The notes: a model not told the origin generated them from the sequence alone. A stretch of DNA of 49,361 nucleotides, filler included, from Sphacelaria rigidula (GCA_964200075.2; 3 parts of 3 records of this genome joined end to end with filler, not necessarily neighbours in it), one strand, 5' to 3'. Shown: positions 3,552-46,538, numbered from the whole stretch's first letter. Numbers and translations: made by a program.

Positions 3552-4898
3552 CGCAGACACCACAATGCGTTTACGGAATTTATCGAGGGCTCCGAGACAA
3601 GGGGGAACATGACATCTGGACACAAAACTGCTGATGGACACCCTTCACGTAACTAGCCAAATCGGTAGCATCACCACCCCTCCCCTCTCCTCCCTATTCG
3701 CAGATAGGATGCCATCAAATTGATCATATTCCCTGGTGAGGATCTATATATTGCTATACTCCTCGAGTACATGATAAATGCTGCTTGATTATCTCGAAGT
3801 ATCCTGATTCGCTCCGTAGGATTCAGTCCCGTGGTGTTTGAATATCGGACGGGAGATTTGCGATGATTTTCCCCCGCCATTCGGGACATGCAATCGAAGG
3901 AGACAAACAAACGTCAACACAGACAGGTATTACGAACAGCACCTCGGGGTTGAGTTTGATCTCCGCAGGAACCCCTAATTTTTTTTGCAGCTGTTCGCTC
4001 TCGAGCCCTGGAGAGACATGATCTAGCAAGACCCTCGAATTTGCTCCATCAGACATGCTGGGTCAGATGGCGTGATCGTTCACCCTTACATCTCTCGCGA
4101 CAGGTTGGCAAATCTAATGGTCCTACCACCCCATGGAGGATGACGATGGAGTGCGCGCAGGTGGTCGAGAGTAGGCCGTTTGGGCGCTCCACAGATTTAA
4201 TAGATCCTTCTCGTGGCATCGCACTCGCTTCAACTTTTTCGCAAGACAGCTGCGCAAGAACAGACCCCGCCCTAGATCTTCGACGTTCGACCGTCGAGTG
4301 GGGTCGTCGGGGTATCCCGGTAGCTCCTTAGGATAAATCTTTTGTCAAGTTACCCATCCCAGTGATCATATCAACATGCGGAACATTTGGTTGGACATCT
4401 AACGGGCGGATTCAAGTGAAGGGGTGGGTGGGGTTCGAAAAGGTAACTGTCCTTGGTGAAACAGACGACATCCCCATAAAATGCAGCATGTCCACACGAT
4501 ATTTCCGGGGAAAAATCATGTCCATGTGAAGGATATTTCACAACTTGGTTAACTGCAGACCTCCTCAAGCTTCCCCAGCACAGCTGACTCTCGGGCGAAA
4601 GCAGAGCTTAGTATGCCGGAGGCCAACGTGATGGTGGCAAGGGAGTTTATGCTCGGATGAAGCTCGAAAAGCGTGCTGTGAATGTTCGGAGGCGTTACAA
4701 CAGTAAGGACGCTTAATAAAAATCGATTGATTGGTCATTGCACAAGAACTAATCGTCATGGATCCAGCTGTGATACTTTCAACAAGATGAACATATTCAA
4801 AGGTGGAAGAGCCCTCCGACCAACGGGGTGGGTTGTCAAGGGAAAAATGACGCCAACGCAAAATGAACCCGACACGGGAGTCCACACTGGCACATTCA

Positions 4899-4976
4899 CA
4901 TACATACATACATACATACCTACATACATACATACATACATACATACATACATACATACATACATACATACATACA
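4899..4976. repeat. (TACA)n microsatellite
   Basis: About 19 near-perfect TACA units. Confidence 0.97.
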
Positions 4977-5126
4977 CACATACGTACAATACCAAGCAAG
5001 TGATGGAGCACGCACACAGTACAGTGTTGCGTAAAGGAGTAAAGGAAACGACCATCCGGAGACCAGTCAATGCTGGAAAAGTTTGAAATATTCCCGTCCG
5101 GACCCTATTTCGTCATGTCGACGCGG

Positions 5127-5231: not shown

Positions 5232-7842
5232 AGCGATTGGTCATGAAAGAGATGGCAATATTTCGAAACAAATCATGAAGATCCTTGTTGCTTCCGGACA
5301 CAAGAATTCAAGCACCGTTCATGATGAGAATTTCCTTCCGAAATGAGTTATTCGAAGAAAAAGAAAAACCTCGACGGAATCCATTTTTTTATATTAACTT
5401 TTCAGAAATCCCTGCCCCTCATTTTGAGCAAGGTCAGCGGTTGTGGGGCATGATGAAGCCGGACACGCCTCGACATGCACGCGGCGCGTCAGGAACATGG
5501 GGGCCTGTAGCACTTGTTGACAAGATTCACAGCAATATCATGACCGGATGAATCGGATGGCCGTCACTAATATTTTCAGGCAAAGGACCCATACATGAGG
5601 ACGAATTTGTAGTAAATAAACTATTTGGACGAAGCGCGTTATATCCTAGCGTTTAAAGTCGGCACCCAGCAAACACTGAGGACCTGTCAAAACAAGCCGG
5701 ATAACTAAAAACATGGGACATGTTTTGTTTCACTGTACTGCAGCACAAACACACTCACGGCCGCTCTCATGTGCTGTAGCCATAATTTTGTGTGGTTTGT
5801 TTTAGACCTCGCGAAGACGGTTTCGTCTCCGCTGTGAGATTGCCCAATGTGCTGCAGTGTTGTGGTTGTCTCTCTGAAACATTTAGCATCAGTCGGGACG
5901 CAGTGTTGTCTACACACTCAACTGTCCGTTGAAAACTCCATATTTCCCGGACCCATCACTTGCGCGATACCGAACATGGCTGAGTTAAGGCACACAACCA
6001 GCACCAGTATACACGGCTCGACCGGCCGGGCCGGATACCATGCTCAGATGAAAGGAGCAACACAGAGCATAGTGCGGATATACTGCACCGCCAGGGTACT
6101 GCCTGCACCAATCAGCATGACGGGTGCTGCTGCTAGCATCGGCGCCAGCGCTCGGGGCCACGGGAAGACACAACCAGCCCCACCAAGATGGGGATATACT
6201 CGTACATGGGCATCGCAATGACCCACTGAGGCGGCACTGTAGCATTCGATATCTGCTGGTCTGGTTGCAGCTCCGTTTTTCTGCGGATGTTTTATCCATC
6301 CCGGCGTGCACTCAAAATGTGAATCGAACCTGCGAGCCAATAAGAAGCAGTTTTACTGTTCACTACGAACGTCGGGTACATGAGCGCTCAATTCCGCTGA
6401 TTCCTCACTGAGGAGCCTCTGATTGGTTGAATTACATATTTCACCACAAAAAAGTACCTCCCCATGTGTGAGCGTTGTGCCTTTTATCACATCGTCGATG
6501 GCAAGGGATCCTCGGGAACCGGCAGTGGGGGTCTCTTCAAAACAAATCGTCCGATACTTCGTCCGTGCCTCTCCTCGCATACAATATCTGATGGCAACGT
6601 CATGGTCCCAAGCGTCGGATTTCTGGAAATTACTCGGTTCTAGTGTAATTGATTCAAATCGTACCAATCCCATGGGCCTTGTTTCCAGCGTTGCAGCTTA
6701 GGTACACGCAGCCCAGCCACGTGGAATGGCGCAAAAGTTGCGTGGATACCCCTTGGACTAGCGGTCAACATTATTTTCCCTTTCGGGCAACCAGGCCACA
6801 GAAATCGTTGAATTTGGTGATCCGAACCCGTGATGATTCATCCGAACCGTGCATGGTTCCATTGAACGACAAGATCCAGGTGCCATTTGGCCAGTTTCAC
6901 TGCTGTGTTGGAAATCATTCGTCTAATAAGGTGAATTTTTGCACACCTTGAACAGGATGAAGATTACCTTGTCGAAAAGTGTGCTGCGTACAGTGTCGAC
7001 TACTGCGCCAATTGCGGTGGATGATACTGTAGATACCATACTGCATGCAGTAGTTTTTGACAGGATGATCTCCCAGCATGTGAAGTTTTGCACGTCAACT
7101 GGAAGGCATGACATTTCGGACGCGGGTTCGTGCATCGTTATGGATTACACACTTGCAGATTGCACGCAAGCAGTGTAGAGGAACAATAACGTAGCCATGA
7201 GACACAACATCGGGAGGAAGGGAGGCGGCGCCGGAGTAACCGGTGCCACGTCGAGAGAGACTCTTCCTGTCAACCCATGATTTACGTGATGCTTCCCGAC
7301 ATGTAACAGTACACAATGGCGCCACGAAGAGTGGCGGATTCTGATCAGCCTCGAGTGATACTTCCAAAAATCGAGCGCATGTAGCACGTAAGAAACAAGG
7401 ATGACTACAGGTGTCTACCTTGCGGTGTAAACACGCAAGGCACTTGAACGTGCCAAATGCGTGTGCGTTACAACACAACGAATTATATAGACAAATCAAT
7501 AACTATGCAAACGGGGTACAAAGTTCTCGCATTCCTCCTAGTCTTGCATTCATACGGTGCTTCTCCTGTACGTGGCGGGTGCCAAGAGGTTGGATCTGTT
7601 CCTAGCATTGTCCATCAGACTTTACAGACAGAGCAGAAATGGGCACCCGAGCAGATACAAGCGGCCGCGGCTCCATGTTGTGCGGTGAATCCGGGTATGC
7701 CCAATCGGATGGGAAAGGAAACGGGAAATCGTTTGGAACTATAATACAAGAGATCAGGTGAGAATTCCACGCATAGTAGAAATGTTGTATCAAAAAGTCG
7801 GGGTTTCCGTCGTAATGCCAATAATGAATTATCGAAGAATTG

Positions 7843-16390: not shown

Positions 16391-16490
16391 NNNNNNNNNN
16401 NNNNNNNNNNNNNNNNNNNNNNNNNNNNNNNNNNTTAATTAATTAANNNNNNNNNNNNNNNNNNNNNNNNNNNNNNNNNNNNNNNNNNNN
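16391..16490. other. assembly gap with artificial six-frame-stop linker
   Basis: N44-TTAATTAATTAA-N44, identical to 32881-32980. Confidence 0.97.
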
Positions 16491-21300: not shown

Positions 21301-21732
21301 GTTGTCATTGATGATATCACACGCACCATCGGTGGCGGCACATAACATGATTGAATCGGACCATTTTTTGGAGCGTAGACGTCGAGCCGGAATTTAAACT
21401 TGGCAAGGCCGTCTACGGGAACTGAATAACTTCGAGCAAAGGTGGAAAATTGAAGGAAGAAAGAGGCGTGGGTAGGGAAGTGAAGTGTGTTGCGAGCAAA
21501 GTTGTCTCGTGAGCGAGAGGCACAGAGCGGAAGAGAGAGGGGGCAAATCTTCAGTCTAGGATCATCAACAGGTGGTCGAGATCACATCAGTCCACCGCTG
21601 ATAGGTGTTAGATTGGTTTTTTTCTTGAGGACTCAGTGTTTTGTCGCGCGGGCCAGGTAGAACGGTGCAGCAGGCCCGCGCTTTCCGAAAACAAAACCCA
21701 CCGATTTTTGAGGCGATATATATATTTTTGCA

Positions 21733-22754
21733 GTTTTGTGTGCTCTCCTTCGGAAGAGGGAGGGCATACATCAGAGCTGAGAGCGAGAGCGATGCGGCAC
21801 CAACACCAACACCAACATCGCCACCAACAGCAGCAGCAGCAACAGCAACAGCAGCAGCGAACACCCCAGCAGCAGCAGCAGATGGGCCTTATCATGTCCC
21901 GTGAGAGCAGCACACTAGGACAACAACAGCAACAACAACAGCAGCAGGAGCAGCAGCTCTCAGATTCACAGCAAGAAGCTTCCACCACTGCAAACAGGGC
22001 GCCAAAAAAATCACCGACTCCGCCGCCTCGACAAAACCCATTGGGCGTATCCGGCATGAGGGGTACCCTTGGTGGTCATGGGATCCCAGGGAAAGGGTCT
22101 TTGTGTTCCCCAGGGGAGAATACAACTGTGGCAGAAGCGGCGACGGGGGCTGTAGGTGTTAGTGGCGATAGTGCTTCCGGTGTTGTGGAATCACAACATG
22201 AAGTCGACTTTTCACGAAACCCAGCGCAAAAGAAATCATCTCCCGAGGTTGTGCCCGGGACGGAGGGGGGTCTTCGTCTGGAGACGGAAACCGGCAGCAG
22301 TAGGAGCATGGAAGAGAGCGGGCAGGTGTTGGGTACCCTTCAAGAGGACATTTTGTCCGCGGCAGTTGTGGCGGCGGCAGTGGAAGCGGCAGGGGGTGAG
22401 GGTAATGGTGGTGGCGCCAGCAGTGGTAGTGTTTCGAAGGTGACAGAGTTACAGCCCGAGACTGTTGCGAGGAAAGCAGCGCAGAGGAAAGCCAGGCATC
22501 AACAGCAACAGCAGTTGCTAGGCGCTACACGGCAGACGCGCTACGGCAACAACAAGGCTGCGAATAGCAGTGCTACCAAGGCTAGCAGTAGTGGAAATGC
22601 TAAAGGAAATGAAAAGGAGAAGCAGCAGCTGCAGCAGCAGCAGCAAAATAAGGCTTTTGGGCTCGGTAGAGGGAAGAGACTCCGGGCGCAACAGCAGACA
22701 AAGGACAAAAAAGCGGGAAGCCACAAGCGAGGTGGTGGCGTCTCTGTTGATGAG
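21733..22754 (+). CDS. large low-complexity Gln/Ser/Gly-rich exon of an unknown protein
   Basis: Core of the 481-aa ORF 21636-23081, with several polyQ tracts of mixed CAA/CAG codons. Bounded by acceptor tttttgcag| and donor GAG|gtatgc. A possible next exon starts near 22887 (caccag|GTGATGAAG). No recognisable domain. Confidence 0.55.
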
Positions 22755-25511
22755 GTATGCTGGGTACGATTACAGCGTACTCTTCAGAAGAAAAGGTTTT
22801 GTCTCTCTGTCATCATTGTGTCTTTGTGTGTTCTGGTCGATATGCAAGCACTCTATGTGTGGCAATGTGTGATGGTGTGCCACCAGGTGATGAAGACACA
22901 CGAAGATGAAGAGATGAACCGCCGACGGGGTGTTTTGGTGACTCGTGGTGCCCTGGTATCATATTTTTTGTGTCAACATGGGCATTTCACTATGAGAGTT
23001 CTTGGTTCGAAATACAGAGAGCGCCCGCCTCGTAATACATCACCTCACCACCCTTCACTGGTCCACGCTGCGCCTCCCTGAAGAAGTTACCCCTTCACTG
23101 ATCACTTGTTTTCACTGTACGCGTCTGTCTCTAATATTCAACATAATGATACGTTTGGTGTACATTAAAGACACATGGAACGAAAGCATAATACTGTTAA
23201 TGTCTCTTGTGGTGCCCACTTCCCACGCTTCTTCGTCGCTCCGTACTCGTAATTTGTGTGGTGTGTGCCAGACACAAGGGTCGCATTTGGCTTTTACGTG
23301 GAGATTGATGTATATATACTATCAGAAGATTGCTATCCAGGGCAAGCAGAACATTTTTTTGAACATGATCGTCAGTCGTGCATCGCTGGCACAAGCACCG
23401 TACTGTCGAGTGTACTTACCGACTGTAACGCACTACACTATTGTTGTACCACTTCACAGGCGCACAGACAGGAGTTCGTGCTTGCTTCGAATAGTCGGGC
23501 TACGTCTGGCAAAATCGGCATGGACGTTTTTTTTCGTTTTTTCCCCCCGGTCTTTGATTCGAGTTGTCACAAACACGCGGGCAGCATGTGTGCACTTTTG
23601 CCCTCGTCTCAAAACGTACCTCAACCTTCAGTTTCACATGTTTGTTTTTTGAACGGCCCGATCTGTTGAAAGAGACACGAACAGCTCGGTGCCCCCAGAC
23701 CCTCCCCTGTCGTGAAAAAAATATTCTGCTGGGCAGGAGTGATGAATGCTACCAAAGCCGACATTCGACAGGGTCTGCTATCCTCTATTACCCGAGTGGT
23801 TTCTAGGGATCGTTCTGATCGTCGTCTAGCATGCCAAGCGTGCGGTGATGCTGTCCATTATTTTCTTCGTGTTTGTGCAAACTGCTTGCAAGACCCCTGT
23901 GTCAGACCTGCGCGTGTGTTCCTTTACATAAACAGCAAATAGATCTTGCAAGAGACAACCTGTTTCAGAATGGAAACCAAAACGAAAGCATATACCCATT
24001 TGCCGACAGGGGCTTGACGCGCAGAGCAGGGGAGAATATGGGCTCGCTCTGGTGTTCGCTGCTGTGTTTTGTGTCTGTGCGTGTCCATCGTGCTCTTGCG
24101 AGGGCGGGTGCGCACCGATGTTGAACAAACGTTGAAAGGATCGTTTTTTGAAAATATCACGCTGCTCTCACCTGTACTGCCTAAATTCGAAGGCCTTCTC
24201 CCCACTATTTTCGTTTTCTGTGGTCCTGAATTTTTGAGAGATCGTGTCAAAATGTGGCAGCGGGCCATGCCATGTCTCTCTTCTCTCTGTACTAAATCAG
24301 TACTTTATACAAGAGTCAGTAGTAAATGGTTTTGACATATCGCACAGACAGTAGGCAGTACTGGTACCTCTATTATAGTAACTTTTTGAACCAAGACACA
24401 AATGAACGGTTTGCTCTCTCAGGCAGTCTAGGAGAATCTCCGGACATCACTCGCTTGTCATACCCTCCCATGTGGGGCCCACTTCATTTTTGTCCGTTGC
24501 CAACATGAATGGAGCGCTGTCGGTGTATTAAACTTTTGGAGTTTCAGCTAGTGCCGTCATCTCTTTGGCTCGAAGCACCGAAACCCGCTCTGCGCTCCCA
24601 AACCGGAATGCCCGTCCAGTATTTTTACCCCCACATACAACGTTGAGCCAAACTCACCGAGTATATAACTATGAAGTATCTCATATACTACAATACTGGA
24701 GTTCATCAACGCAGCGTATAGGTGGAGACCGACCACGGTCGACCATCGCCGCATTTGTGCTTGATGCTATCCAACTTCTGCCGCCACCCGCTCGCGGGGC
24801 ACCGTGTACTACGAGAGGGCTGTAATAATGCCCTGGGTTGCTGTGGAATGGGGATTTTCCTCCCCCAGTTTACCGTTTGTCGTCCTAGTCCCTCAGAGTG
24901 TATGTAGTATAGGCGAGAGTACGATACTGATCAGATATAATGGTAGTTGCAGGGCAGCCATCTTTACTCGAAATCCGATACAGACTTGCACGCTGTACCC
25001 TCGCACGGCCGTGCAGCTTCTGACTGCTGTACACGCTCACACACACAGCTTCCCCCCTCCTGAAATTCACCCACACGTTGTTGTTATTCATTCATGCACC
25101 AGTGATGCTCACCTGAGTCTACGTGCGTGTCATGCATCTGCATTTCATGCGCAGAGAGGGAAAAATGAGGTCACATACGCGCTGTTTTTATTTTTAGTAC
25201 AGTATGTCGTGATCATTTTCTCCGAAAGAATGTGTTGCTGTAGCTGCTGCTGCAGTTCTATACATGCACCCTACCGTTGTACTGAGTCTACTGACCGCGC
25301 GTTTGAAAGCCACCAGGTAACTTTACTGTCCGGCAACAACCATCGCTGTCTCGTTCGGGTATTTTTAGTCTTGAAATATTTCGTGCGGAGCACGACACAG
25401 GCTAAATCGCCCCCCCAGGAACCACGCCCCCCCCCCCCCTCCTGTCCCGCTACAGGGAAACTAAACTCGTCAACATTCTCAGCCGATACGGAGTTATTGT
25501 ACTATTTATAA

Positions 25512-25740
25512 AGGTATATCTTGAACTCGAGGTTCGTGGTTCCTGGTATTTTGTCTTTCCCTTGTCCAAAAAAAAAATCCCAACCAACCGTCCAACCATC
25601 CATCCTCAGACAATCTTCAGTCAATTTATTTATTTATTTATTTATTTATTTACATACTCCGTGTATTATTGTCTTTACCTTCTCTATTTCACGGTAATTG
25701 ACAGTCAAATAAGCCGGGAACCTCGAGTTTGAGATACCCT
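25512..25740. mobile_element. family-A MITE enlarged by an internal repeat and (ATTT)n
   Basis: Same TIRs, about 230 bp apart; the interior carries the ccaaccatccatcctc repeat. Confidence 0.65.
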
Positions 25741-25844
25741 TACTAAACTGGACCACCATCCTCTCTGTAACCACAGGGAACGCCCCCTGCATTCTTGGAG
25801 CCTTTCTCGTGATCCAGGATTGTTGACAAGATCCATGCGATTTT

Positions 25845-25948
25845 TCCACACCCTGGACAATATATGTGGTCAAGAGTTGCAATAGGCCTATACTCTACGC
25901 ATGTTTTTTGTCTATTGCAACTATGGACCGTGTTGTCTAGGGTGTGGA
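25845..25948. repeat. imperfect inverted repeat / small MITE-like hairpin
   Basis: tccacaccctggacaa...agttgcaatag versus ctattgcaact...ttgtctagggtgtgga. Confidence 0.75.
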
Positions 25949-26566
25949 TTTTTCACACCTATGACGTGAAAGCCAACGGTCGGAAACGTGAGGAATCATA
26001 CTGTTTTTGAACGGGTGATTCATGATGTGTTACCTACTCCCCCCCCCCCCGAAGCTGGGTTGGGGGCGGGAGTGCATACTGTCCCAAAATCGAAAGTATG
26101 CAATGATTTTTTTTGGCCAAAGAACATCCAAAGTCGGAATCGGGGATTGCTCAAGATCAAGACGTGCCCAGCTGCGGCCGGAATGTGTGAGGCCGTGAAC
26201 ACATCGCAGTCTTCTGATCGCTGCTTGCTGGGCAAGAAACATGCCCCCTGCTGCCATCCTAGAGACCAACTGGAGATCCAGTAGAGTGCGCCTTTGCCCT
26301 CAGACGGTAAGGGTATGTCATGTGCTCATGCAGTAATTTCGGAGTGAAATCGATGTTCATTCAGCTGATGGACCCATGCATGCTCGCGGTCAAAGGGCCA
26401 TCCCTCACGACACGATGGACGGCGAGAGTAGGTTATGAGAACATGAAGAGGAGGTCAAACAATATGGTCGTGTGATTTTGACATACTGGATCGGAAATAC
26501 GAAAGAAAAAAAAGCCCGACAAGGCAGTTAGCGAAATACGAAAAAAGAAAAAGCCCGACAACGTCG

Positions 26567-26679
26567 TCCACATTTCGGCGAAAAATTCGAACACCTCCAG
26601 GAATCAAGCAGGGGATGATGGCATCACCAATCCCCTGCTTGGTTCCTGGAGGTGTTCGAATTTTTCGCCGAAAGGTGGA
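26567..26679. ncRNA. miRNA-precursor-like stem-loop (50-nt arms, 13-nt loop)
   Basis: 26567-26616 pairs with 26630-26679 with one mismatch and one G-U pair (+ strand). The hairpin is certain; the RNA function is inferred. Confidence 0.4.
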
Positions 26680-26774
26680 TGTTGTACCTCCTTCCAAGGT
26701 CCAGCATCCTCAGGGTCTGCGGGCGACTTTGCAGCGCTTCATTTTCCTGGAGTCCCATCACTTCTGCTGACTGC

Positions 26775-26968
26775 GTCTGTTAAATCGGCATCACTTTCAC
26801 TTGAAAAAGTATCCATGATCCCGATGGACTAGCATACCCTCTCGGTCTAGATATTAATCCTTTCATGGCGAGGGCGGGCGATCTACTGAATCGGCACCAT
26901 TTATATTATTTTCAGGTGTAAACGATGCCGATTCAACAGATCGCCCACCCTCGCGGCCAAAGGGTTAT
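26775..26968. mobile_element. partial family-B MITE abutting a related element with two left-type arms
   Basis: 26775-26857 matches the family interior and right end. 26853-26968 is a palindrome (gcgagggcgggcgatctactgaatcggca / tgccgattcaacagatcgcccaccctcgc). Confidence 0.6.
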
Positions 26969-27291
26969 GCTGCCTCTGATTTGTACATACGGACTGGTCC
27001 TGGGTGAACGCCCAAAAATTATTCCCCACGCAAAACTGACCCGACAGAGACAAATTTGGTTGTCATGGTGAACCCCACAAACAAGCGAGCAGGGTAATAT
27101 GGACAGAATATTTATTGCGTCCTTTACTGTGGCGGTATAGTAGTGAAAATGTTTCTCGGCCAATCAGGGACCTTCAACTTGTTTCGAAATTAATCATGTG
27201 AATCCCCGATACAGTGACCACGCAATCTCATCAAAAATCAAACATGAGTACTAGTCATCAGCTGGGAAATCTGGCGTAAGAAACGGATTAA

Positions 27292-27389
27292 CCCTTAGAC
27301 GGCGAGGGTGGGTCATATCTTGAACCGGCATCAATTTCACGTGAAAATAGTATGCATGGTCCAGATGGACTACTATCGCGGTCTGAGGG
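27292..27389 (+). mobile_element. 98-bp piggyBac-like MITE (family B)
   Basis: TTAA|CCCTTAGACGGCGAG...ATCGCGGTCTGAGGG|TTAA; interior similar to the 18293 copy. Confidence 0.85.
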
Positions 27390-27789
27390 TTAAACAACGA
27401 TTTTTATGCGATTGAGTTATATGCTCTCAGCCGTAGAGCTCGGAAATGGTTTGTCTCACCACTAACCAGTTGAATGGTACATGATGATTTGGTCATCGGG
27501 CGGTGCAGCCGCGAGCCAAAAAGCCCCCCCCACGGTAGAGGGGGCCCCGCCGGAGACGCTCCCGGAGAGCCACGCTGGAGGCGCCGTGCCGGGGCACGTC
27601 TGTACGCGATTTGGCTTCACTAGAACATTAAATTTGGGCCAATTTTCAAGGACTGTATATAGCATACGTAGCCGGTAACTGTAAATAATGGATTGAAACC
27701 ATTATCCAAGATTTTTCAAATAACCATCACCATTATCACTATCATAATGATGATGGCCAGTTATAACTGGTAGCATTGCTCCCGGCGTG

Positions 27790-27866
27790 AAAAAAAACGC
27801 CGGTAGCATGCTACAATAAAGCAATCCACAGGCACCGCAGGTGAGGTAGGTACCCGGTACCGGTAA
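27790..27866 (+). repeat. dispersed ~75-bp repeat, second copy at 30845-30921
   Basis: aaaaaacgccggtagcatgctacaa..aagcaatccacaggcaccgcaggtgaggtag.tacccggtaccggta is shared. Confidence 0.85.
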
Positions 27867-28304
27867 TTTGGACTTCTACGAGCTGGGCCATCAGTTAATC
27901 CCGCTTTCGCTTTCTACACCACAACTTCTCGAGTTTTCCAAATCAGTGCGACTTGAGCATATCGCTGGAAAGTGCAGAACAACCTGGTAACACACGGCAC
28001 CGCCACTGAAGGAAGAAAAACTATGAAAATAAAGGAGCTGCATAATTTAGCGGTTGCACTGCGAGAATCGGTCAGTGTTCACCTTGTCGGGATCTATCGC
28101 GACATGTGGGCGCACGGGTGATGCAGAACATGCTTTCTTTTTCATTACGAGTACTGAAAACAACAGGTGCATGCCCGCAGACGTTTCCGACAACACATCG
28201 AACGGTGCCGTGTGATTGGTTGAAGAGGCCTTGACTCGCTACGCCCGTGTTGGCTCTGTCTGCGTCGTCTCGTCCCGATATCTGTTGTTGTCCCTATAAC
28301 CAGG

Positions 28305-28864
28305 ATCATGGGACTACCAGCTTTTGTAGCAGCCACAGCCGCCGGAGTCAACACTGTGACTGCTGTTCTCACGCGCGCTTCAGCACGAGAGAAGGCCAAG
28401 GCAGAAGCCGCCGTTGGTGAGCTGCTTGCCCGCGAGTCGCTCTGCCGAGTGGCGTTGGGGGGCACAAGTGCCATGTTCCTCTTGGTGGCGGCGGTAGGGG
28501 CGTTCAAGTGGTGGAAGGAGCACAAGAGGTGCAACGAATTGGAGCTCGGCGCTCAGGTTATTTCCAGGACATTTCCAGGACATGAGAATTTCCCGGAGAT
28601 CACCTGAGCGCTGAGCTCCAGTTCGTTGCACCTCTTGTGCTTCCTCCACCCCTTGAACGCCCCTACCGCCGCCGCCAAGGGGATCATGGCACTTGTGCCC
28701 TTCAACGCCACTCGGCAGAGCGACTCGCGGGCAAGCAGCTCACCAACGGCGGCTTCTGCCTTGGCGTTTTCCTCTCGAGCTGAAGCGCGCGTGAGACCAG
28801 CAGTCACAGTGCTGACTCCGGCGGCTGTGGCTGCTACGAAAGCTGGTGCGAGTAGTCCCATGAT
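28305..28864. repeat. long inverted repeat (arms ~270 nt, loop ~13 nt) formed by two convergent copies of a small ORF; candidate hairpin RNA
   Basis: 28305-28573 is the near reverse complement of 28587-28864. ORFs 28308-28607 (+) and 28861-28553 (-) encode near-identical peptides. Confidence 0.95.
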
Positions 28865-29049
28865 GCTCTTCTAACACCTATAATAATTATAAATTGAATA
28901 ATTAATTCATTGCTTCAAGATTGTTTGAGGATGGTTGGTTGAGATTGAATTTAATTCCAAAGTGGAGCTCCTAACGGCGTTACTGACACATTCGTACGTA
29001 AGTAAGCGGTACAGCGTCCACTCTGACGAAGTACATGCTACACACTAGA

Positions 29050-30250
29050 GGCTGGTTCAGGCTTAAAACCCTGAAAACACTCATCGGCGAAAGCTCACCT
29101 CGTTTCCAGGAGTTAGATCTTTACACTAGATGTTCTATGGGGCATTACGCATATTCCGAAGGTCGAGGTTACGTTTTTTTTACTTTTTCACCGTTTTTCG
29201 GGGGTCCCAGTTTTTTCGGCGAAACATCGATCCCATCGGACCCCCGTGAAACGGCAAAGAACAAAATCTCAAAAAACCTCGTTCATCCATAGTTACGTAA
29301 TGACCCATAGCACAGTTGTGCAAAATTTCAGGGTCTAACTTCGTGGAACGGCGCGAGGTTTTTCGCTTTTGTGCGATGAACTGTGACGTGCCGCGGTGAA
29401 ACCGCTAACTACTTGATTTTAGTACCAAAAGGGCGGGTTTGGGCCTTCTTCGACGTGAACATGAAAATTCAACCGTCCGTTGATCGATTTTTACGACGAA
29501 ATTTTGTGGGTTCATTCCTTGGGTTATGCGGCGACAGCTCGTTTGCCAAAAAATGAGGAAAAATATTTCGTAGTGCCGGTTTTCCGGGGTCCCGGAATGG
29601 AGACTACTTCGGAAAACGACTTGGATCCTGTCGGACCCCCGAGAAACGGTGAAGAACTAGAAAAAAAAATCGTCCATGGAAAGGTGCGTACTGACACATG
29701 GCATATTTGTGCAAAGTTTCAGGGTCTAACTCCTAATAACGGCGTGAAGGTTCGCGGGTCTGTGGAGGACTGGCTTGCAACGTGCAACTCCTTACTACGT
29801 GGTTTTTGTGTGGAAACGTCTTTTGGGTGAATTTTACGTCATGGCAAGAAAAACTGTATGAGGTTCTCGAGTTTCTCCACCAAACGTTGTACATGTGTTC
29901 CTTGGAGTATCCCGAGACGCATCATTTTATTATTTTTCTTCTGGGGCATTCTGTACCGCCTCCCGGGAGTCTTCATACGGGGACCCCCGGAAGCCGGTAC
30001 AGAACGGAGAAACCATGAAATATTGTCAAGGAAACCATTTTTCGATTTTGATCATCAGTATCTACGTAATTGCCAAGTTTGAGAGTGATCTGAGCTTTTC
30101 TACAACAGATAGAAGGGACACCGTCACGAGGCTCCCTGGGTCTTTCGTGCGTATCACTAGTGGGAAATTAGACGACGCCAACACCCGACATCACCGAAAC
30201 ATCACGGTTTCGGTAATCATTCAACCCCCGTAGTAACCGTTTTCAACTAT
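29050..30250. mobile_element. decayed non-autonomous element(s) with internal direct and inverted modules
   Basis: gtgcaaa(a/g)tttcagggtctaact occurs at ~29318 and ~29709, with an inverted relative at ~29100-29150; tcggaccccc at ~29237 and ~29631. Boundaries are approximate. Confidence 0.5.
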
Positions 30251-30599
30251 GTTTTTTTCGTTAGATGCCCGAGCCGATGACGGTTACTGCCATTTGAAGC
30301 ATGTGGAGATTGGGTAAAAATTAGGCTTGGAATTCGTAATTTTGATCTCTGAACAATTTGACGGGCGCTGATTGGTCGATGTACCTTTTCGCCCTTAGCG
30401 CTACCGTTATGGCCTTACACACAAATCCGTCTGTGTCACGCTCTTCAGCTGTCCATGGCGGTCAGTATGATATCATGTGTGCGACTATTGGGTAGGTGTT
30501 GCGAAATGCATTTGCTGATGACACAATTTTGGGTGATGAGCGTGAACCAGCCTGTATACATACTACAACGGTACCGTTGTAATATATTGTTCCTCTTTT

Positions 30600-30670
30600 T
30601 TCCAAAAAATAAATTTCAATCCCAATCAACCATCCAACCATCCATCCTCACACAGTCCTTCATTGATTCA
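30600..30670 (+). repeat. dispersed ccaaccatccatcctc repeat (also 25565-25625 on +, 28895-28960 on -)
   Basis: Shared ccaaa..aatcccaa.caacc.tccaaccatccatcctca..ca.tc motif. Confidence 0.7.
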
Positions 30671-31231
30671 TAAGCATAAAATATATACATAGGTTTCCCC
30701 TATACCTCTGATCACAAAGCTCCGATCATCGTCAAACGTGGCAATTTGGCACATATAGGCACACTCCAAATCGAAAACAAGAATCGATGAACATGGTTTC
30801 AAAGTTTATTCTCTCTCTACCGGCTTCCGGGGGTCCCGGCGTCAAGAAAAAACGCCGGTAGCATGCTACAAGCAAGCAATCCACAGGCACCGCAGGTGAG
30901 GTAGATACCCGGTACCGGTACTTGGGACATCTCAAACCCTACCAATACCGGTCCAATCGGGTATTTTCAAAACTCATACCTACGATACCCACGCATACCG
31001 CCGTATGAGATACCCCGGTAAATACCGAAAGTACGCTCGATACGGTACCTTACCTACGGTTCCCGTGAAGCAATCCGGGGGTTCCGCGTACATTTGTACT
31101 TCAACGCACACGCGCCCGCGATATCTCACCCGGGCTTTTCTATTTAGTCCCCGAAAATTCGCACCCGTGTGTTACGGGGTGCTGCAAAATTGACGATGAA
31201 TGAGGTATTCCAAAAATATATAATCCGCCGC

Positions 31232-31825
31232 GCCCCGGTGGTGTAATGGTCCTACTGTCGCCATGAGGGTGGAAAGAATGGAGGTTCGATTCCCGATGCG
31301 TTGGTTCTTTTCTCAGTAGTGTATGATTTCCACCGTGGAAAGCGTGAGAACGTGAGTAAACAAAGAAGTCGACTGGGTTTGTGTGACGAGAGTTGACGCG
31401 GTACCGCGGGAGTGCTGGTCATGATCCAATCCGCGAGACCAAAATGCAAGGCGCGTACCGGGGGAGAGATGCGTTGATCCCTTGAGACCACGGACTCATC
31501 CCGAGGAAGGGGAGGGGTTCAAAGTGTGAGGAGAAAAAAAATCGCCAGGTATCCGATAATAGCACCGTACTATGAGAGTGGTTCTGTGCAAGATCTTTCC
31601 AACCGAAGCAATGTGGCAGAGGCTGGCTATTTATTTTATTTTGATGTCTTGTTCCACTATGTTGTTCTGTTATACCTTTTTTGTTTCTTCATTTTTCTTG
31701 AGCGAGTATTTCAGTTTTGTTTTGCCTCGGGTACGTCTATCCTGTGACCACGGCTGGATCATGACTCCTGAGGGGTCAGTTCAAGTGCGACAATCAATCA
31801 ATCAATCAATCAACCAATCAATCAA
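31232..31825 (+). mobile_element. tRNA-derived SINE (~590 bp)
   Basis: Pol III box A TGGTGTAATGG (31239-31249) and box B GGTTCGATTCC (31283-31293) in a degenerate tRNA head, a unique body, and a (CAAT)n tail at 31791-31825. Confidence 0.8.
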
Positions 31826-32249
31826 AATTATTATCGGAGTCGGTACCTTGTATCGACCTTGAGTATTTCATGAGAAAAACTGTTTTTCCTAACCTTCCTC
31901 TAGCGGGCGGATTTAATCGGATTTCGTTTTCTGCTTCTCCGATCGGATCATTGGCAGAGGCGACGGAAACTTTCCGGAAATACCCCACCGCTTAGAACGG
32001 CTCTGGGTTGTCGCTTCACAAGCTCTTAATTGCCCAAACTCTGCGCTGCGGGGTACACACCCTCAAGCAATATCCCTCGTGCTTTTTTTTGTAGTGTTGT
32101 CACCTTGGGTAGGTACGTCTCTCGTGCGGATAATGACAAGGGCTTGCTCCCTCGGGCATGAATTAATGTGCAACAGCGTATGAACCTGAACAATCATATG
32201 TCGGACAGCTCATGAGCTGCCTAAAATAACGAATCGAAGAGGACTCTTA

Positions 32250-32725
32250 GACCCACTTTTATGGCAACGAATATCGATTTGTACAGATATGGGGATTTCA
32301 GACCGTCTACAGACTGTTTTCTCCCATGGATTGATTGTTTTGACCCCAGTCCGTCGGGTATTACTTTTCGGCTAGCTGTGAGCAAACCAGATCACTTCTC
32401 CGATTTTCTGGACGTTTACTTTCGGTATACCAACTCTTTGCCCAAATCGGGACACTCCCACATCTCCCCCAATTTTCCCCCGATTGAAAAAAAAAAATCG
32501 GGGGAGATGCGGGGGGGAGTCTCCCGATTTGAGCAGAGAGTTGGTATACCGAAAGTAAACGTCCAGAGAATCGGAGAAGTGATCTGGTTTGCTCACAAAT
32601 AGCCGAAAAACATTGCCCAACGGACTGGGGTCCGAAAAATCAATCCTACGGGAGAAAATCGCCTGTAGTCGGGCTGAAATCCTCATATTTGTACAAATCG
32701 AGATCCGTTGCCATAAAAGTGGGTC
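32250..32725. mobile_element. fold-back MITE, PIF/Harbinger (Tourist)-like, ~210-bp TIRs, TTA target-site duplication
   Basis: GACCCACTTTTATGGCAACG...CGTTGCCATAAAAGTGGGTC, flanked by TTA at 32247-32249 and 32726-32728; almost the whole element is palindromic. Confidence 0.85.
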
Positions 32726-32880
32726 TTAGATCAGTTGTCCTAAAACGCAAAATACGCGACAGTAGAGTCAGAGAAGCCATTTCCGTCCCTCTACTTGTAA
32801 GAAGGGGGGGGGAGTCATTGGACGTTCTAGTGTGGTACGTCCCGACTGACGGGGGTGGTTGAGAGTTGAGATATTACAGG

Positions 32881-32980
32881 NNNNNNNNNNNNNNNNNNNN
32901 NNNNNNNNNNNNNNNNNNNNNNNNTTAATTAATTAANNNNNNNNNNNNNNNNNNNNNNNNNNNNNNNNNNNNNNNNNNNN
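32881..32980. other. assembly gap with artificial six-frame-stop linker
   Basis: N44-TTAATTAATTAA-N44. Confidence 0.97.
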
Positions 32981-33441: not shown

Positions 33442-35273
33442 GGTAATATTGCAGAGCTATCTTGTACGCCGCAGTCGTCCTAACCGACACCGCTGGTCTT
33501 TACTGTTCTGGGCATCAGCTGGGTTGGCCTTGAATCGTCGATTCTGGCCACTTTTGTGACGTTTTTTATCCGTTGGGCCGCATTTGTGCGCTCATGGAAT
33601 ATTGTCAACCACTGAGTTCTAGAGTATCGAGTCGTCATGAGGTATACCTTCTCCTAGCCACCACCCTAATTCGACGGGTTTTGAAACGGAGATGAAGGCA
33701 TCGTATATGTTTGCCACTTCACTGTCGTACTGCTGTAGAATAATACATAAACAAGAACTTAGTGTTCATTTCGAGCCTTAGGTTTCTGTGACACGGCTTG
33801 ACAAAAGTTTAAGGGAGTACCGGAACTTAATGGTGTTGTGTTCTCGACGTTTTGCCGTTTGGACACGGGTAATATACGAGCCGGTCCTGACGAAGGATAC
33901 CTCAAGTGCCTTGGGCGATATTTTACTTGAGATATCAAAAGTGAAACCTGACAACTTTTATGGTGTCCGGTGCCGGGTGTTCCAGCGGCAGGTATAGTCC
34001 CGTGTAAATTAAATTGGGAACGGAGATACGCCACCCTCCTCAAGATTAAAAACCCCGAGTAACATAACCCTAGATATGTACATTCCTTGGGAACTCGGTA
34101 ATTGTACACATCGTTGCAGGTGTCTCAAACAACATGTTTCGGTGAGGTTTCCCGTAAATGAAAATCGACACACCCAGGCACCGAAAGATGAAACGTGGTG
34201 TGCGTTTTTTCGGGGGTGGTGATATTGACGTCATGCCCCCCCTAAGAGTCTGAATGCATTTTTCAGCTGGTAGCGGATGGGGATGTCCGAGCTGGCAGTT
34301 CCTCGTCGGAAGCTGCACCGTTGGAAGACAAGGAGGGTAATCGAGTTGCCTCAACAGCAGCATTTGAAGAAAGACCGCGTGTCGCATTTCTGGCGAAGCA
34401 GCTGTCTGGGGACTGCAAAAAATGGGCAAGACCTCCAACCCACGAGCTCTGTAGGAGCGACGCACAAGCATACGGCTGATAATCCGATTCCTGATCCGAT
34501 GCGATTCATTCAATCGCACGGTGCATTATGTACGATATCTTTCTGACCCGCAGAGATCATGTTGCGTTCGATCCTCCACTTGTCGTTCTTGTTTCGCCTA
34601 TTCTTGGCTTGAAAAAATGAAAAAACCGTGGGGGGTGGTTTATAGACCAAACATCTACGGGCATCCTTGACCCAAGGTAGCCAGTGTAACCCGACAGAAA
34701 CAGACGACGCACGGTACTACGACAATAGACGGAAGAAGTACAAACATCAGTCTAGAAGTATACTGGTGAACTTCTTGAGATTTTCAATATTTGAGTGCCC
34801 ACAAGTTGAAATTCCTCCCCGCGGGGGGAGGAGGGGGCTGTGTGTCCGAATTTCAGTCTACGAGCACCCTCGTAGTGCGGCCATGAATTTCGAACGGCGA
34901 CAACTTGGATGTCGCAACAGAAGCTACCGCGCTGCTCTCGCTTTGATGTCAGCAATTCGCGCGGAAAATTTCAGGACAATTGAGCAAGCACTCAGTAACC
35001 ACGTTGACTATCGCACACAACCGGTCCTTCCCTAACTGCTACGGCAGGTCGTATTCGATTTTTCGCGGTTGTATATTTGTGTATAATGATGAAAGCGCTC
35101 ACATTACCGGTTAGCCGGTCAGCGCGCGGCGACCTCCGGGGTGGTGTGTTCGGTTGCAGGGCACCTGTTTTTCTGTGTTACGCTATTGCGAATGCTGCTT
35201 TCTAACGATATTTTCTAGTCGCGATGGCAAAATAATGCTAGATAGTGACGGGTCCTAACCAGCCGCTACTCAC

Positions 35274-35493
35274 CCATATGGTCAAAGGTGAGATAAATAT
35301 CTCGCCCATTTTCCGCCTTGACGACGTGTTGCAGGCGGATAATATTGTCGTGTCCCGCGAGTGCCTGTAGATACATAATCTCCCGGAATGTCCTCTGTGC
35401 GTCCGTGGCGTTCCGGAACGCATCAAAGCACTTCTTTAGCGCCAATACTTGGCGACTTCGCTTCTCGATCGCCTTCCAGACAACACCGTATGC
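35274..35493 (-). CDS. MAPK15: MAPK15/ERK7-like MAP kinase exon 2 (kinase subdomains I-V)
   Basis: AYGVVWKAIEKRSRQVLALKKCFDAFRNATDAQRTFREIMYLQALAGHDNIIRLQHVVKAENGRDIYLTFDHM. FDAFRNxTDAQRTFREI is the ERK7 signature; acceptor tcacag|, donor G|gtgagt. Confidence 0.92.
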
Positions 35494-35561
35494 CTGTGAA
35501 AAATGAAATTGTCGGAGATATCGGCAGGTGGATCGTCTACGAAAAGAAGGTACGATGTATG

Positions 35562-35867
35562 ACAACGTTTTCGTGAGATTGAGAGTAGAGGATACGATTG
35601 AGAGTGAAGAGCGGTCAATTAGTGAATGAGTCGTTTCAGTTCCGAAATGCCCCTCCACGAGACCTGATATGCTTTCTGTGGCAGCTTGGCCACTGAGCCC
35701 CTTGATAACCCTAAGTAGGTTATCGACGTGTTGTAGCTGTGAGAACACGCTAGTGATGAAGGCAAATACAAGCACAAAAGGAACGAAAAAAATGGCTAGG
35801 TTAAAGCGAATTACCGGGGCCACTCTCAATCAGCGCTCTACTCTCAATCTCACGAAAACATTGTTGT
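35562..35867 (-). mobile_element. family-C MITE in MAPK intron 1
   Basis: Same TIRs and interior as 15960-16260, opposite orientation; explains the spurious N-terminal half of ORF 35266-35829. Confidence 0.8.
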
Positions 35868-43900: not shown

Positions 43901-46538
43901 CCACTTCTCCTGGGATGCGTACCTTCGTGTGGCAAAATGACTCACTCGTCGATTTGATCAATTTCAGCTCAGATGACGGAGTCGAGAAGCCCTACTGCGT
44001 GTATTCGGAGACTTCCCCTTTTGGGCAAAAATCTACGGGCGTATTGTCGAATTTGGATAATACGTGCCTCCCCCGTGGATTGTACAAGCTAGTGGGTGAT
44101 GATGAGTGCGTTTTTTTCCCTCCCAAAGCTTTCTCTGGACCTTCCCGGCACACCTGTCGTCCATGGTCGATAATTTGAGTTCTTCTTGTGGCTGATGAGT
44201 CTGACATTTTCCGGTGTAACACGGTGGATCAGGTTAGTAATGGGAGCCCATGTCCACGCGCCGCCCGCGGCCAGGTTGACCCATGTTAACCTCGCCGGCA
44301 GGGAGTGACTTGCACTTGGACGATGACCCCATGAACATCTGGTTCTCGAGTAGCTCTAGTAATCCAGTCGTGGGTACCCGAGTGTGAGTATCAACTCTTT
44401 CTACTGCAGAGCTCTTTTGGCAAATGTTTGCTCTGTTACCCAGCAACGCAAAAAGTAACATCATACTTGCACACCGATGCACTCTCACCATGACCGCAGG
44501 CATTCCGAACCGGGTTGGCAGCTATGCGGAAGTGGCCGAAGACCCAGACGTGGAAATCGTCTACGTGGGAATGTTGCACCCTTTCCACTATGAGAACGCG
44601 TTGGTGGCTCTGCAAAACGGCAAGCATGTGCTAGTGGAAAAGCCTTCCACGTGCAGCTTGTCTGACACTCGAGCGCTCGCGGCGATGGTGCGTGACTGTA
44701 CTAACTCCCCCCCCGCCCCCTCCGCTGCCAACGGGATCATGAAGAGCCTGAGAAGCTGTTCTGTCCCCTCAATGGTAAGTCCATCTATAAGTTGTTTCTT
44801 GTTCGTTGTCCCGCTTTCACATGATAACAGGCCAAGGAAAAAGGCGTTTTTTTTATGGAGGGGATGTGGACGCGTTTCTTTCCCGCGATGGCAAAGGCCC
44901 GTGAGCTGGTGCAGGCTGGAGTGGTGGGAGACGTCGTGGCAGTGCACTCAGACTTCGGCTTTAATGGGAACGATGTTGCCAACTACCCGGACCACGTTTT
45001 CTACGATCTGCACCTAGGCGGCGGCGGACTTTTTTACGTTGCACCGTACCCTGTAGCAGTGGCATCCGAGTTCCTTGGGCCAGGACTGCCTTCCCGCATA
45101 GCGGCTGCGGGAGTCAAGGACAAGCTAACTGGTGTCGATCTCAGTGGAGCTATCTCGCTTCACTACGCTGGGAGAGGCATCGCTTCCCTCACGTACAACA
45201 TTCAGGTTTGTACATGTTTTCGGTGTCAAAGTTTCTGTCTGACTCCTTCCACGACATCAACCGCGTGCTCTCCGGACGCATGTTGGCTCTGAGGATCCCC
45301 TTCATGGAAGTGGATACAGGGCACACCTTGTGAAGGTCATCATCCGTACATTTTTTTTCGCTTACGCATGATCGCATTACGATCTTACGCGGCAGTGAAA
45401 ACGCAGAGCGAGTCCCACGTTCTATCCCAAAAGCTGCGCTGCTAGCACCAGTCCAGCAAAACTTTTGGTCCAATTTGGGAATGCTAGCGTCCGAACAGTC
45501 CTGGTAGGTACTGCGGAAATCTGCGATGAGTGTTTCCAGTCGACTACGAGTGAGGGCCGAGGGTTGCATTGGGTTGAATCTAGACGCTCTGTGCGACTGG
45601 GCGACGTCTCTCCTCCTCTCTTCACCGCCCCCTGCCTGTTCGGTTGTTTTTTGTTTGTAGGCTGAAACCGAAGAAGAGACCAGCATCATCGGCACAAAAG
45701 GGCGCATCAAGATTCTGTCTCCCAGTCATGCCCCCACGGCTATTGAGGTCTCAATCAAGCGGAATGGTCGAGGTGCGTGAGGGGGGATTTGCTCTCGACG
45801 GATTTCAACGCTTTCACGTCAAACGAATTTTCGTGCAATGTTGCTCCGCAGCAATTTTGTGGCGTTTTAGCGAATCGGTTGCGTTTTGGTAAAAGTGCGT
45901 GATGCAGCCATCAAGGTTGCGGCGACCTCCACTCTGCTGTCTCGTCTTGTACCAACCCTCCGTTGTTCCACGCGTGGAATCTCCTTCGTGCAGCGAACAC
46001 GACCACGGAGCGCATGGAATTCCCACTGCCACCCCTTCCCGCATCGGTGGAGGAAACAGGGGGATTTAACTACCCCAACTCCAATGGGTTCCAGTTCGAA
46101 GCCGAAGCGATATACGAATCCATTCGTGCAGGAGAAACCAGTTGTCCACTGTATTCGGTGGACGAGATGGTCGCGGTGCGTTGCCCCATCTAGTAAATGC
46201 AGCTAGTGTTCGCGTTTTTCATGCATTAGGCGACGTTCGTTTATGGTTGCGCAAGACTACTCGTTGACTGGCATGCCCGCGGACCATTACAGGTCGGTTG
46301 TCAGTGTACAGTTACCCTAGCTCGTGCCATTCCCCGAAACAAGTCCGGAAATAATCAAAGGGAGGCGGTGGCCTTGATTGTTGCAGTTCAGCCGTTCTTT
46401 CACCCCTCACGACTGGTGCGTTGTGTAATGTGCAACGTTGATGCGACTCTTCATGTGCACTTTCATCGTATCTGCCTCTGACAGGTGATGCACGTTTTGG
46501 AGGAGACGCGCAATCAGCTCAAGATTGACGACGTCTAG
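37557..46538 (+). CDS. DHDH: Gfo/Idh/MocA-family NAD(P)-dependent oxidoreductase (dihydrodiol dehydrogenase / D-xylose dehydrogenase-like), 7 exons, 363 aa
   Basis: Manual splicing of 37557-37649, 38815-38902, 44500-44687, 44831-45205, 45661-45772, 45994-46175 and 46485-46538 gives 1092 nt. All introns are GT-AG, phases match, and the CDS ends in TAG. Family motifs: LRWGIMGAGRVCHDF (Rossmann fold), DVEIVYVG..HPFHYE, GKHVLVEKP, FMEGMWTRFFP, GGGGLF, IIGTKGRI, NSNGFQFEA. Confidence 0.9.
38815..38902 (+). CDS. DHDH: oxidoreductase exon 2 (ALKSVPHAAAVQTVGCRDLKRSMEFADMH)
   Basis: Acceptor tcgcag|GCC, donor G|gtgagg. Matches the V..R...A..FA..HG segment typical of the family; phases fit exons 1 and 3. 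Confidence 0.85.
40730..41580. repeat. two tandem ~470-bp diverged units, each a fold-back with (CAG)n/(CTG)n inside its arms
   Basis: Units ~40730-41105 and ~41200-41577 align (e.g. agctgtgcgcatctctgtg.gagctgtgcac, aaagccagcgt). Within each unit, cacgagaa..agcagcag is mirrored by ctgctgct.ttc. Confidence 0.8.
42831..42927 (-). mobile_element. 97-bp piggyBac-like MITE (family B) in oxidoreductase intron 2
   Basis: TTAA TSD on both sides, same TIR, interior is the reverse complement of the 18293 copy. Confidence 0.88.
44500..44687 (+). CDS. DHDH: oxidoreductase exon 3
   Basis: GSYAEVAEDPDVEIVYVGMLHPFHYENALVALQNGKHVLVEKP; acceptor cgcag|, donor |gtgcgt. Confidence 0.92.
44831..45205 (+). CDS. 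DHDH: oxidoreductase exon 4
   Basis: AKEKGVFFMEGMWTRFFPAM...DLHLGGGGLF...; acceptor aacag|, donor |gtttgt. Confidence 0.92.
45661..45772 (+). CDS. DHDH: oxidoreductase exon 5
   Basis: AETEEETSIIGTKGRIKILSPSHAPTAIEV; acceptor tttgtag|, donor |gtgcgt. Confidence 0.88.
45994..46175 (+). CDS. DHDH: oxidoreductase exon 6
   Basis: FPLPPLP...FNYPNSNGFQFEAEAIYESIRAGETSCPLYSVDEM; acceptor gtgcag|, donor |gtgcgt. Confidence 0.88.
46485..46538 (+). CDS. DHDH: oxidoreductase last exon (VMHVLEETRNQLKIDDV*)
   Basis: Acceptor ctgacag|, phase 0, typical C-terminal helix of the family, TAG stop. Confidence 0.82.
   Translation: MMHVLEETRNQLKIDDV

Follow-up and report, generated by a model that had tools for sequence, protein, structure and literature searches.

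A single-copy palindrome with two exon-like coding arms in the brown alga Sphacelaria rigidula: a candidate inverted duplication with hairpin-forming potential

The inverted-duplication model for the origin of plant MIR genes and proto-miRNAs is reportedly that of Allen et al. in 2004. An update of the model is set out in extracts from PMC3237417, and extracts from two further papers describe natural hairpin silencers that arose from partial inverted duplications, namely, maize Mu killer (PMC3440606) and the Drosophila hpRNA loci (PMC10317233). Brown algae evolved miRNAs independently, and, according to portions of PMC5381526, the two published surveys traced their loci for the most part to genomic hairpins rather than to the duplication of protein-coding genes. 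The mean foldback length of brown-alga precursors is 170-183 nt, and, in the same portions of PMC5381526, a canonical miRNA is defined by a miRNA/miRNA* pair with 2-nt overhangs, on a precursor that is not an extended hairpin with further small-RNA species and that carries no additional loops. At the level of DNA, inverted duplications and quasi-palindromes generated by fold-back or template switching are described in extracts from PMC3907307, PMC7954356, and PMC7999016.

Here, we describe a 560-base palindrome at positions 28305-28864 of a stretch of S. rigidula DNA (GCA_964200075.2) of 49,361 nucleotides, filler included, hereafter referred to as the window. The palindrome consists of two diverging arms that face each other around a 13-nt loop. 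Compared with the systems above, it is best described, as far as our analysis goes, as a dated, single-copy inverted duplication of a coding exon from an orphan family, one that may work, or could come to work, like the seeds of plant MIR genes.

Architecture, boundaries, and copy number of the palindrome

The repeat search returned the palindrome as two collinear inverted pairs, 28389-28573/28587-28771 (185 nt, 91%) and 28316-28391/28772-28847 (76 nt, 95%). The arms, the centre, and the flanks are as follows:

28305-28573, plus strand: left arm, 269 nt, delimited by the repeat search, the arm alignment, and blastn/tblastn
28574-28586, no strand: loop or unpaired centre, 13 nt, from the repeat search and the fold
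28587-28864, minus strand: right arm, 278 nt, exceeding the left arm at two places, by 6 nt and by 3 nt
28395-28457, no strand: perfect complementary run, 63 nt, pairing with 28703-28765
28560-28581, plus strand: 11-nt tandem duplication, two units of ATTTCCAGGAC, which breaks the central symmetry and makes up most of the loop
28240-28304, plus strand: left flank, by sequence reading a pyrimidine-rich tract with an acceptor-like CAG end (AG at 28302-28303) and CTATAA at 28294-28299
28865-28977, no strand: right flank, unique and A+T-rich (GC 0.37 over 28865-29020), with a second CCTATAA at 28877-28883

When 28305-28580 was aligned globally with the reverse-complemented 28581-28864, ATC-ATG stood at the start of the arm on both sides, and the gaps were limited to one 6-nt and one 3-nt indel. 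Together with the repeat search and an ORF scan, this bears out the preliminary description of the locus, in which the arms opened 3 nt before an ATG at each end, enclosed a loop of about 13 nt, and differed by two in-frame indels that introduced no stops. The whole alignment contains 22 substitutions (14 transitions and 8 transversions), and the arms as delimited by the repeat search contain 19 (12 transitions and 7 transversions), for an arm identity of about 93%. Nine of the 12 arm transitions would give G-U pairs in plus-strand RNA, the very figure previously obtained by manual count, and the other three would do so in minus-strand RNA; with the loop-side positions included, the plus-strand count becomes 10 of 14. 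Folding of the RNA, proposed earlier as a check, produced an extended duplex of ~270 bp, with 63 nt as the longest perfect run, at -558.4 kcal/mol for the plus strand (shuffled sequences, -231.6 +/- 6.1; z = -53.8; 0 of 100 as good) and -535.4 kcal/mol for the minus strand. Without one of the two 11-nt units at the centre, the symmetry would extend to within a few bases of the axis.

The sequence common to both arms may begin at 28302, with the shared motif AG-N-ATC-ATG. Past this motif, the outer boundary is sharp, with 12 of 60 in-register positions matching, and no homology was detected between the flanks beyond the arms, local alignment being no better than for shuffled sequences. The boundary falls within 3-6 nt of both the ATG and the acceptor-like AG; the right flank is devoid of a pyrimidine-rich tract. 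The earlier statement that no target site duplication is visible holds for the positions directly abutting the arms, but a 7-nt direct repeat, CCTATAA, occurs once in each flank, at 28293 and at 28877, separated from the arms by 5 and 12 nt, respectively; 4% of shuffled 40-nt flanks have a 7-mer in common.

To assess the assembly and the copy number, Logan contigs of four public runs (X1, X3, X6, and X7) were placed on positions 25000-32000. A 202-nt contig of X1 over 28443-28644 spans the centre of the palindrome with 0 differences, and so does, with one difference, a 231-nt contig over 28414-28644 from X3, a run of another study. All X1 pieces listed are identical to the window, and X1 may therefore be the source sample of the window, whereas X3 differs from the window at 6 of 335 letters of the left flank. 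The palindrome is thus common to at least two sequenced strains or samples and is older than the split of the X1 and X3 samples. Contig depth on the arms and unique flanks is 14-16 in X1 and 15-27 in X3, compared with 10^3 to 10^6 in the neighbouring bins, so that the palindrome occupies a unique island of ~0.9 kb (roughly 28042-28977) between high-copy repeats. Within the 49-kb window, both of the two significant blastn and tblastn matches of an arm are the arms themselves, and no second arm-like contig at a likeness of at least 90% was found in the same-strain DNA run X1. A weak tblastn signal at 7349-7456, with E = 0.045 and 39% over 36 aa, was dismissed as noise. Two of the outcomes that the preliminary description had named as damaging to its interpretation, many palindromic copies and an assembly artefact, were not encountered: the depth is that of a single copy, the sequence is unique within the window, and contigs of two studies bridge the centre, which excludes an artefact to the extent that short-read contigs allow.

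Variation between samples is concentrated in the outer part of the left arm. Of 70 positions over 28317-28385, six differ between X3 and the window, a higher proportion than next to the arm, where the flank has 6 of 335 (p = 0.008), and two of the six arm differences (28351 and 28385) correspond to the right-arm state; X6 and X7 have three of the X3 differences in common (28317, 28351, and 28385). This cluster may reflect arm-to-arm conversion or local hypermutability. Further changes in the X3 left arm affect A19 and L21, which are, respectively, invariant and nearly invariant in the protein family described below (codon positions assigned by hand).

In X6 and X7, for which the label "RNA?" is a guess only, the unique contigs have a depth of 2-3 and most unique bins are empty. 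Their deep contigs (1190 and 1197 nt, depth 71 and 20, respectively) match the left arm only from 28286 inwards and run outwards for ~1 kb of sequence unlike positions 25000-28285 of the window. We considered and rejected the possibility that these contigs represent a transcript, because no GT/AG splice signals were found at the joint 28285/28286 on either strand and the runs resemble low-coverage DNA. The joint probably marks a structural difference, or the insertion of a repeat, immediately upstream of the left arm.

The repeats around the unique island, at 25468-28041 and 28978-31785, are of extremely high copy number. At 31318-31551, the summed contig depth reaches 4x10^5 in X1 and 10^6 in X3, with poly-A-tailed loose ends at 31526-31541, and internal repeat pairs are found at 27780-27877/30834-30932 (92%) and 29229-29360/29624-29752 (76%). 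A second fold-back, at 32245-32730, has arms at 32328-32459/32515-32646 (132 nt, 89%) and 32245-32325/32650-32730 (81 nt, 88%), a 55-nt centre with an A-run, no coding appearance, and the ends CTCTTAGACCCAC ... GTGGGTCTTAGATC; it probably belongs to the MITE-like elements mentioned in the preliminary description. Elsewhere in the window, 44388-45292 (plus strand) contains exons of a GFO/IDH/MocA oxidoreductase (PF01408, PF22725); the protein is of the D-xylose/dihydrodiol dehydrogenase type and shares about 80% identity with brown-alga proteins. The best named relatives of the exon at 44828-45208 are from Ectocarpus (79-80%), Hapterophycus (80%), and Discosporangium (74%), followed by the xanthophyte Tribonema (67%), which supports the brown-algal origin assumed in the preliminary description. 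A protein-kinase exon was recognized at 35269-35829 (minus strand), with PF00069 exactly at the cut-off. An open frame of 489 codons at 21612-23081 (plus strand), rich in poly-Gln and in Ser, Ala, and Gly and with poly-Cys on the opposite strand, matched no Pfam family and could represent either an exon of low complexity or an artefact of simple repeats. A microsatellite-like short tandem repeat at 4682-5104 reads (MYVC)n in one frame and (HTYI)n in another, in unremarkable surroundings. The 186 N of the window include a run of 10 at 2369-2378 and two stretches, 16391-16490 and 32881-32980, each composed of 44 N, 12 bases, and 44 N; these may be masked or gap stretches.

The coding block and its protein family

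The preliminary description assigned a peptide of about 100 aa to each arm. The corresponding ORFs, at 28308-28607 (plus strand, 99 aa) and 28861-28553 (minus strand, 102 aa), are indeed open, but the final 16 residues of each are read across the loop and then from the antisense of the opposite arm, so that the homologous coding block comprises just 83 and 86 aa. The elements of this block are the following:

28308-28556, plus strand: left coding block, 83 codons from ATG to CAG, nearer to the relatives in the hydrophobic segment
28604-28861, minus strand: right coding block, 86 codons, with more derived changes (8 events vs. 4)
28557-28573, plus strand: donor-like GT and presumed intron, 17 nt, mirrored at 28587-28603 on the minus strand

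In both arms, the ORF frame is the only one that is free of stops over the whole block, the other five containing 1-5 stops each. Relatives of the 83-aa block are exceedingly rare: among 1.84 billion representative proteins, just two were retrieved, namely, P0001 (90 aa, 75% identity, E = 1e-28), from a 917-nt Logan contig, and P0002 (116 aa, 53% identity, E = 8.5e-7), from ENA, which belongs to a cluster of three, P0002-P0004. A search among proteins of similar length identified one relative in 19 candidates, and scoring of 8000 candidates of 155-2000 aa yielded none. The block is absent from all annotated proteomes, including those of brown algae, in the collections searched. Pattern matches in JGI metagenome contigs (590), viral contigs (595), and prokaryote genomes (42) gave no confirmed relative. 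The best Pfam matches scored 14.7 and 14.2 bits, below the respective cut-offs of 27.8 and 25; there were 0 matches in PDB at E values up to 1 and no usable match in the ESM Atlas. An AF2 model built from the four-sequence alignment consists of three helices, with a mean pLDDT of 55.4 (low confidence).

The family alignment has a consistent layout. The first Met is common to all members, with P0003 beginning 7 residues upstream, and the frame and in-frame indels are kept as far as the motif (G/S)AQ-V, across a hydrophobic N-terminus, a charged helix rich in Ala, Glu, and Lys, and a hydrophobic segment followed by Trp and basic residues. The coding appearance originally attributed to the arms is thereby substantiated, the relatives preserving Met1, the frame, and the hydrophobic/charged arrangement. 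Beyond Q-V, the tails are unrelated, and the ORFs stop 7, 17, and 29 residues past that Gln. In both arms, the Q-V codons read CAG|GT. From this pattern, which comes from three lineages of short ORFs from small contigs, it appears quite likely that the conserved block is an exon ending at a splice donor, with gene callers on short contigs reading into the intron; alternatively, it could be a single-exon small protein with a C-terminus free to evolve. A search for a downstream exon found none. The GC content of the arms (0.61) is near that of the two recognizable exons of the window (0.56-0.57), so that the composition fits an exon; the flanks have values of 0.51 and 0.37. The arms would thus each represent one exon-like block of a conserved, lineage-restricted small protein family of apparent membrane type, rather than a whole 100-aa gene, an assignment that is new here. 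The analysis thereby flags a small protein family without members in the annotated proteomes of the collections searched.

Divergence of the arms and readings of the locus

Within the coding block, the arms differ by 12 nonsynonymous and 4 synonymous changes (dN 0.068, dS 0.064, dN/dS 1.06). Such a ratio would be unlikely (p = 0.007) if both copies had evolved at an omega of 0.25, a value that is assumed and not taken from the nucleotide sequences of the relatives. When polarized on P0001 and P0002, 8 derived events fall on the right arm and 4 on the left arm, an asymmetry that is not significant (p = 0.39). The derived changes of the right arm include the 6-nt insertion, a Gly to Lys replacement at the start of the hydrophobic segment, and a Trp to Gly replacement in or near that segment, and the peak hydropathy of the second hydrophobic segment is about 2.0 in the left arm vs. 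about 1.1 in the right arm. A dN/dS of 1.06 is the neutral expectation, which argues that the arms are not two constrained genes. On balance, it is probable that the copies are drifting about neutrally, the right one perhaps faster, and do not represent two protein genes under purifying selection. In simulation, 58% of copies remain open after 16 substitutions; together with a chance of about 1/9 that the indels are in frame, pure drift would produce the observed state with a probability of about 0.06. The stop-free copies and in-frame indels are, then, in mild tension with pure drift and may reflect some coding constraint on both arms. Differences between the arms are also unevenly distributed, affecting 5 of the 17 positions between CAG and the loop vs. 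16 of 249 in the coding block (p = 0.006). Palindrome centres can be extra mutable. The lower divergence of the block could stem from such mutability of the centre or from selection or gene conversion acting on the block.

The best reading of these data, and in our judgment a fairly probable one, is a DNA-level inverted partial duplication of one exon, the copies of which are now drifting. One exon-like block, consisting of the start codon, the first ~83 codons, and ~20 nt after them, would have been copied in inverted orientation beside itself with almost no spacer, the likeliest route being fold-back priming or replication template switching. A later 11-nt tandem duplication, presumably by slippage, would have opened the centre to the 13-nt loop, while since the event both copies would have diverged at a roughly neutral pace, possibly more quickly on the right. 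The 3' splice-site-like left flank and the better-kept hydrophobic segment of the left arm weakly suggest that the left copy is the original. If this copy is a working ATG exon, its pre-mRNA would carry an antisense exon directly behind the splice donor, and the start codon and the donor would be buried in the ~270-bp duplex; the gene copy would probably be crippled, which would explain the drift in both arms. The duplex, with its 63-bp perfect run, is predicted to be a plausible Dicer substrate and, hence, a potential source of siRNAs against the family. A random duplication at the DNA level leaves the coincidence of the outer boundary with the start codon unexplained. Given that the boundary lies 3-6 nt before the ATG, one might speculate that an RNA ending at the 5' end of a transcript served as the template for the reverse copy (RNA-templated fold-back repair), an idea for which this coincidence is the sole support.

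Among the alternatives to an exon duplication that is now drifting, the one that fares best, although we regard it as unlikely, is a working hairpin-RNA locus, of the endo-siRNA or proto-miRNA kind, in which the plus-strand transcript would be diced, the parent family silenced, and the hairpin maintained by selection. The length of the duplex and of its perfect run agree with such a function, as do the plus-strand fold, which is better than that of the minus strand by 23 kcal/mol, the G-U character in the plus strand of most arm transitions, and the greater likeness between the arms in the coding block than in the 17 nt at the loop. The inverted-duplication model calls for arms of protein-coding origin, which the arms here have, and extracts from PMC5381526 report Dicer/Argonaute-based miRNAs in brown algae and many Ectocarpus candidates on extended hairpins. 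However, the G-U bias is not significant (binomial test, one-sided p = 0.07 for 9 of 12 and p = 0.09 for 10 of 14), and strand-biased C-to-T mutation through deamination would give the same pattern. Furthermore, no separate target copy was found within the window or among the X1 contigs at a likeness of at least 90%, and, in the portions of PMC5381526 concerned with brown-alga surveys, duplicated protein-coding genes are not considered an important source of miRNA loci. The Rfam search gave 0 matches at gathering score over the whole window, and only sub-threshold matches of a generic hairpin nature on both strands of the palindrome; the 12 at the hairpin tip belong to unrelated miRNA families, with the best scoring 53 bits vs. 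a gathering score of 120. As a canonical brown-alga miRNA precursor, the locus was rejected on structural grounds, being an extended hairpin three times the mean length. The more specific proposition that it is a newborn brown-alga hairpin-RNA gene, formed after inverted duplication of the ATG exon of a lineage-specific membrane protein, is accordingly put forward tentatively, as a minority prospect. If true, it would be the first documented brown-alga case of the small-RNA route by "inverted duplication of the target"; if the locus is silent, it would be an ordinary, dated fold-back duplication that disabled an orphan gene copy.

It is more doubtful still that the palindrome comprises two functional convergent genes, each encoding a membrane protein of ~100 aa and kept alike through arm-to-arm gene conversion, the second of the two interpretations offered in the preliminary description. 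Both ORFs are open, start with ATG, and differ by in-frame indels only, the family is conserved elsewhere, and the left arm of X3, X6, and X7 has the right-arm state at two of four substitution differences in the outer arm (28351 and 28385), which could be conversion. Yet the dN/dS check recommended in that description, when applied between the arms, gave a value close to neutrality (1.06), and the arms are just ~93% identical, whereas pairs kept by conversion are typically above 99%. The right copy, with its degraded hydrophobic segment, carries radical changes at positions conserved in the relatives. Moreover, the antisense ORF tails and the end of conservation at CAG|GT indicate that each arm is probably an exon and not a gene, and transcripts converging from the two sides would overlap and base-pair from end to end. 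The claim of a gene pair kept similar by conversion is therefore not one that we retain.

A foldback or MITE-type transposon with a captured gene fragment is very improbable: the region is repeat-dense, with another foldback 3.4 kb away (32245-32730), and the flanks share a 7-nt direct repeat, but the depth is that of a single copy in two DNA runs, there is no further copy in the 49 kb, the direct repeat does not abut the arms and is of a kind matched in 4% of shuffles, and the arms are coding sequence up to their tips. Least credible of all is an assembly or library artefact, such as a chimeric fold-back read, because, although some libraries are known to yield artefactual palindromes with tiny spacers, the arms here have diverged by 19 substitutions and two indels and the centre is spanned by short-read contigs from two different studies.

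Comparison with described systems

Ampliconic gene palindromes have kilobase arms that are nearly identical through arm-to-arm gene conversion and that contain whole working genes. The present locus shares with them two convergent coding copies around a short centre, but its arms measure 0.27 kb, are 93% identical, contain one exon-like block, and have a dN/dS of about 1. As in fold-back and template-switch duplications, the copies lie head-on with hardly any spacer between them, the outer boundaries are sharp, and the locus occurs just once; the cases described in the extracts from PMC3907307, PMC7954356, and PMC7999016 are, in contrast, from human, great-ape, yeast, or cancer genomes and mostly of other size ranges, and that mechanism does not entail an outer boundary that coincides with the start codon.

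Similar to Mu killer and the Drosophila hpRNA loci, as described in extracts from PMC3440606 and PMC10317233, the palindrome duplicates part of a gene, with its 5' portion, in inverted orientation and would yield a long hairpin upon read-through from outside. For those loci, siRNAs and targets have been demonstrated, whereas this one is a candidate at the level of DNA, and its only known candidate target is its own left copy; Mu killer, in addition, forms a ~4-kb hairpin of transposon-gene origin, compared with the 0.27-kb duplex here.

The comparison with the inverted duplications at the origin of plant MIR genes is the one that bears most directly on the possible fate of the locus. Unlike those, the present locus is a DNA-level candidate; its fold-back of 560 nt contrasts with the brown-alga precursor mean of 170-183 nt; and its host belongs to a lineage in which, according to the portions of PMC5381526 on this point, the route is judged unimportant. 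What the two have in common is a long, near-perfect fold-back, arms copied from a protein-coding segment, and a young age, as reflected in the ~93% identity. A young, single-copy hairpin derived from a coding exon thus offers a concrete place to test for the plant-type route in brown algae.
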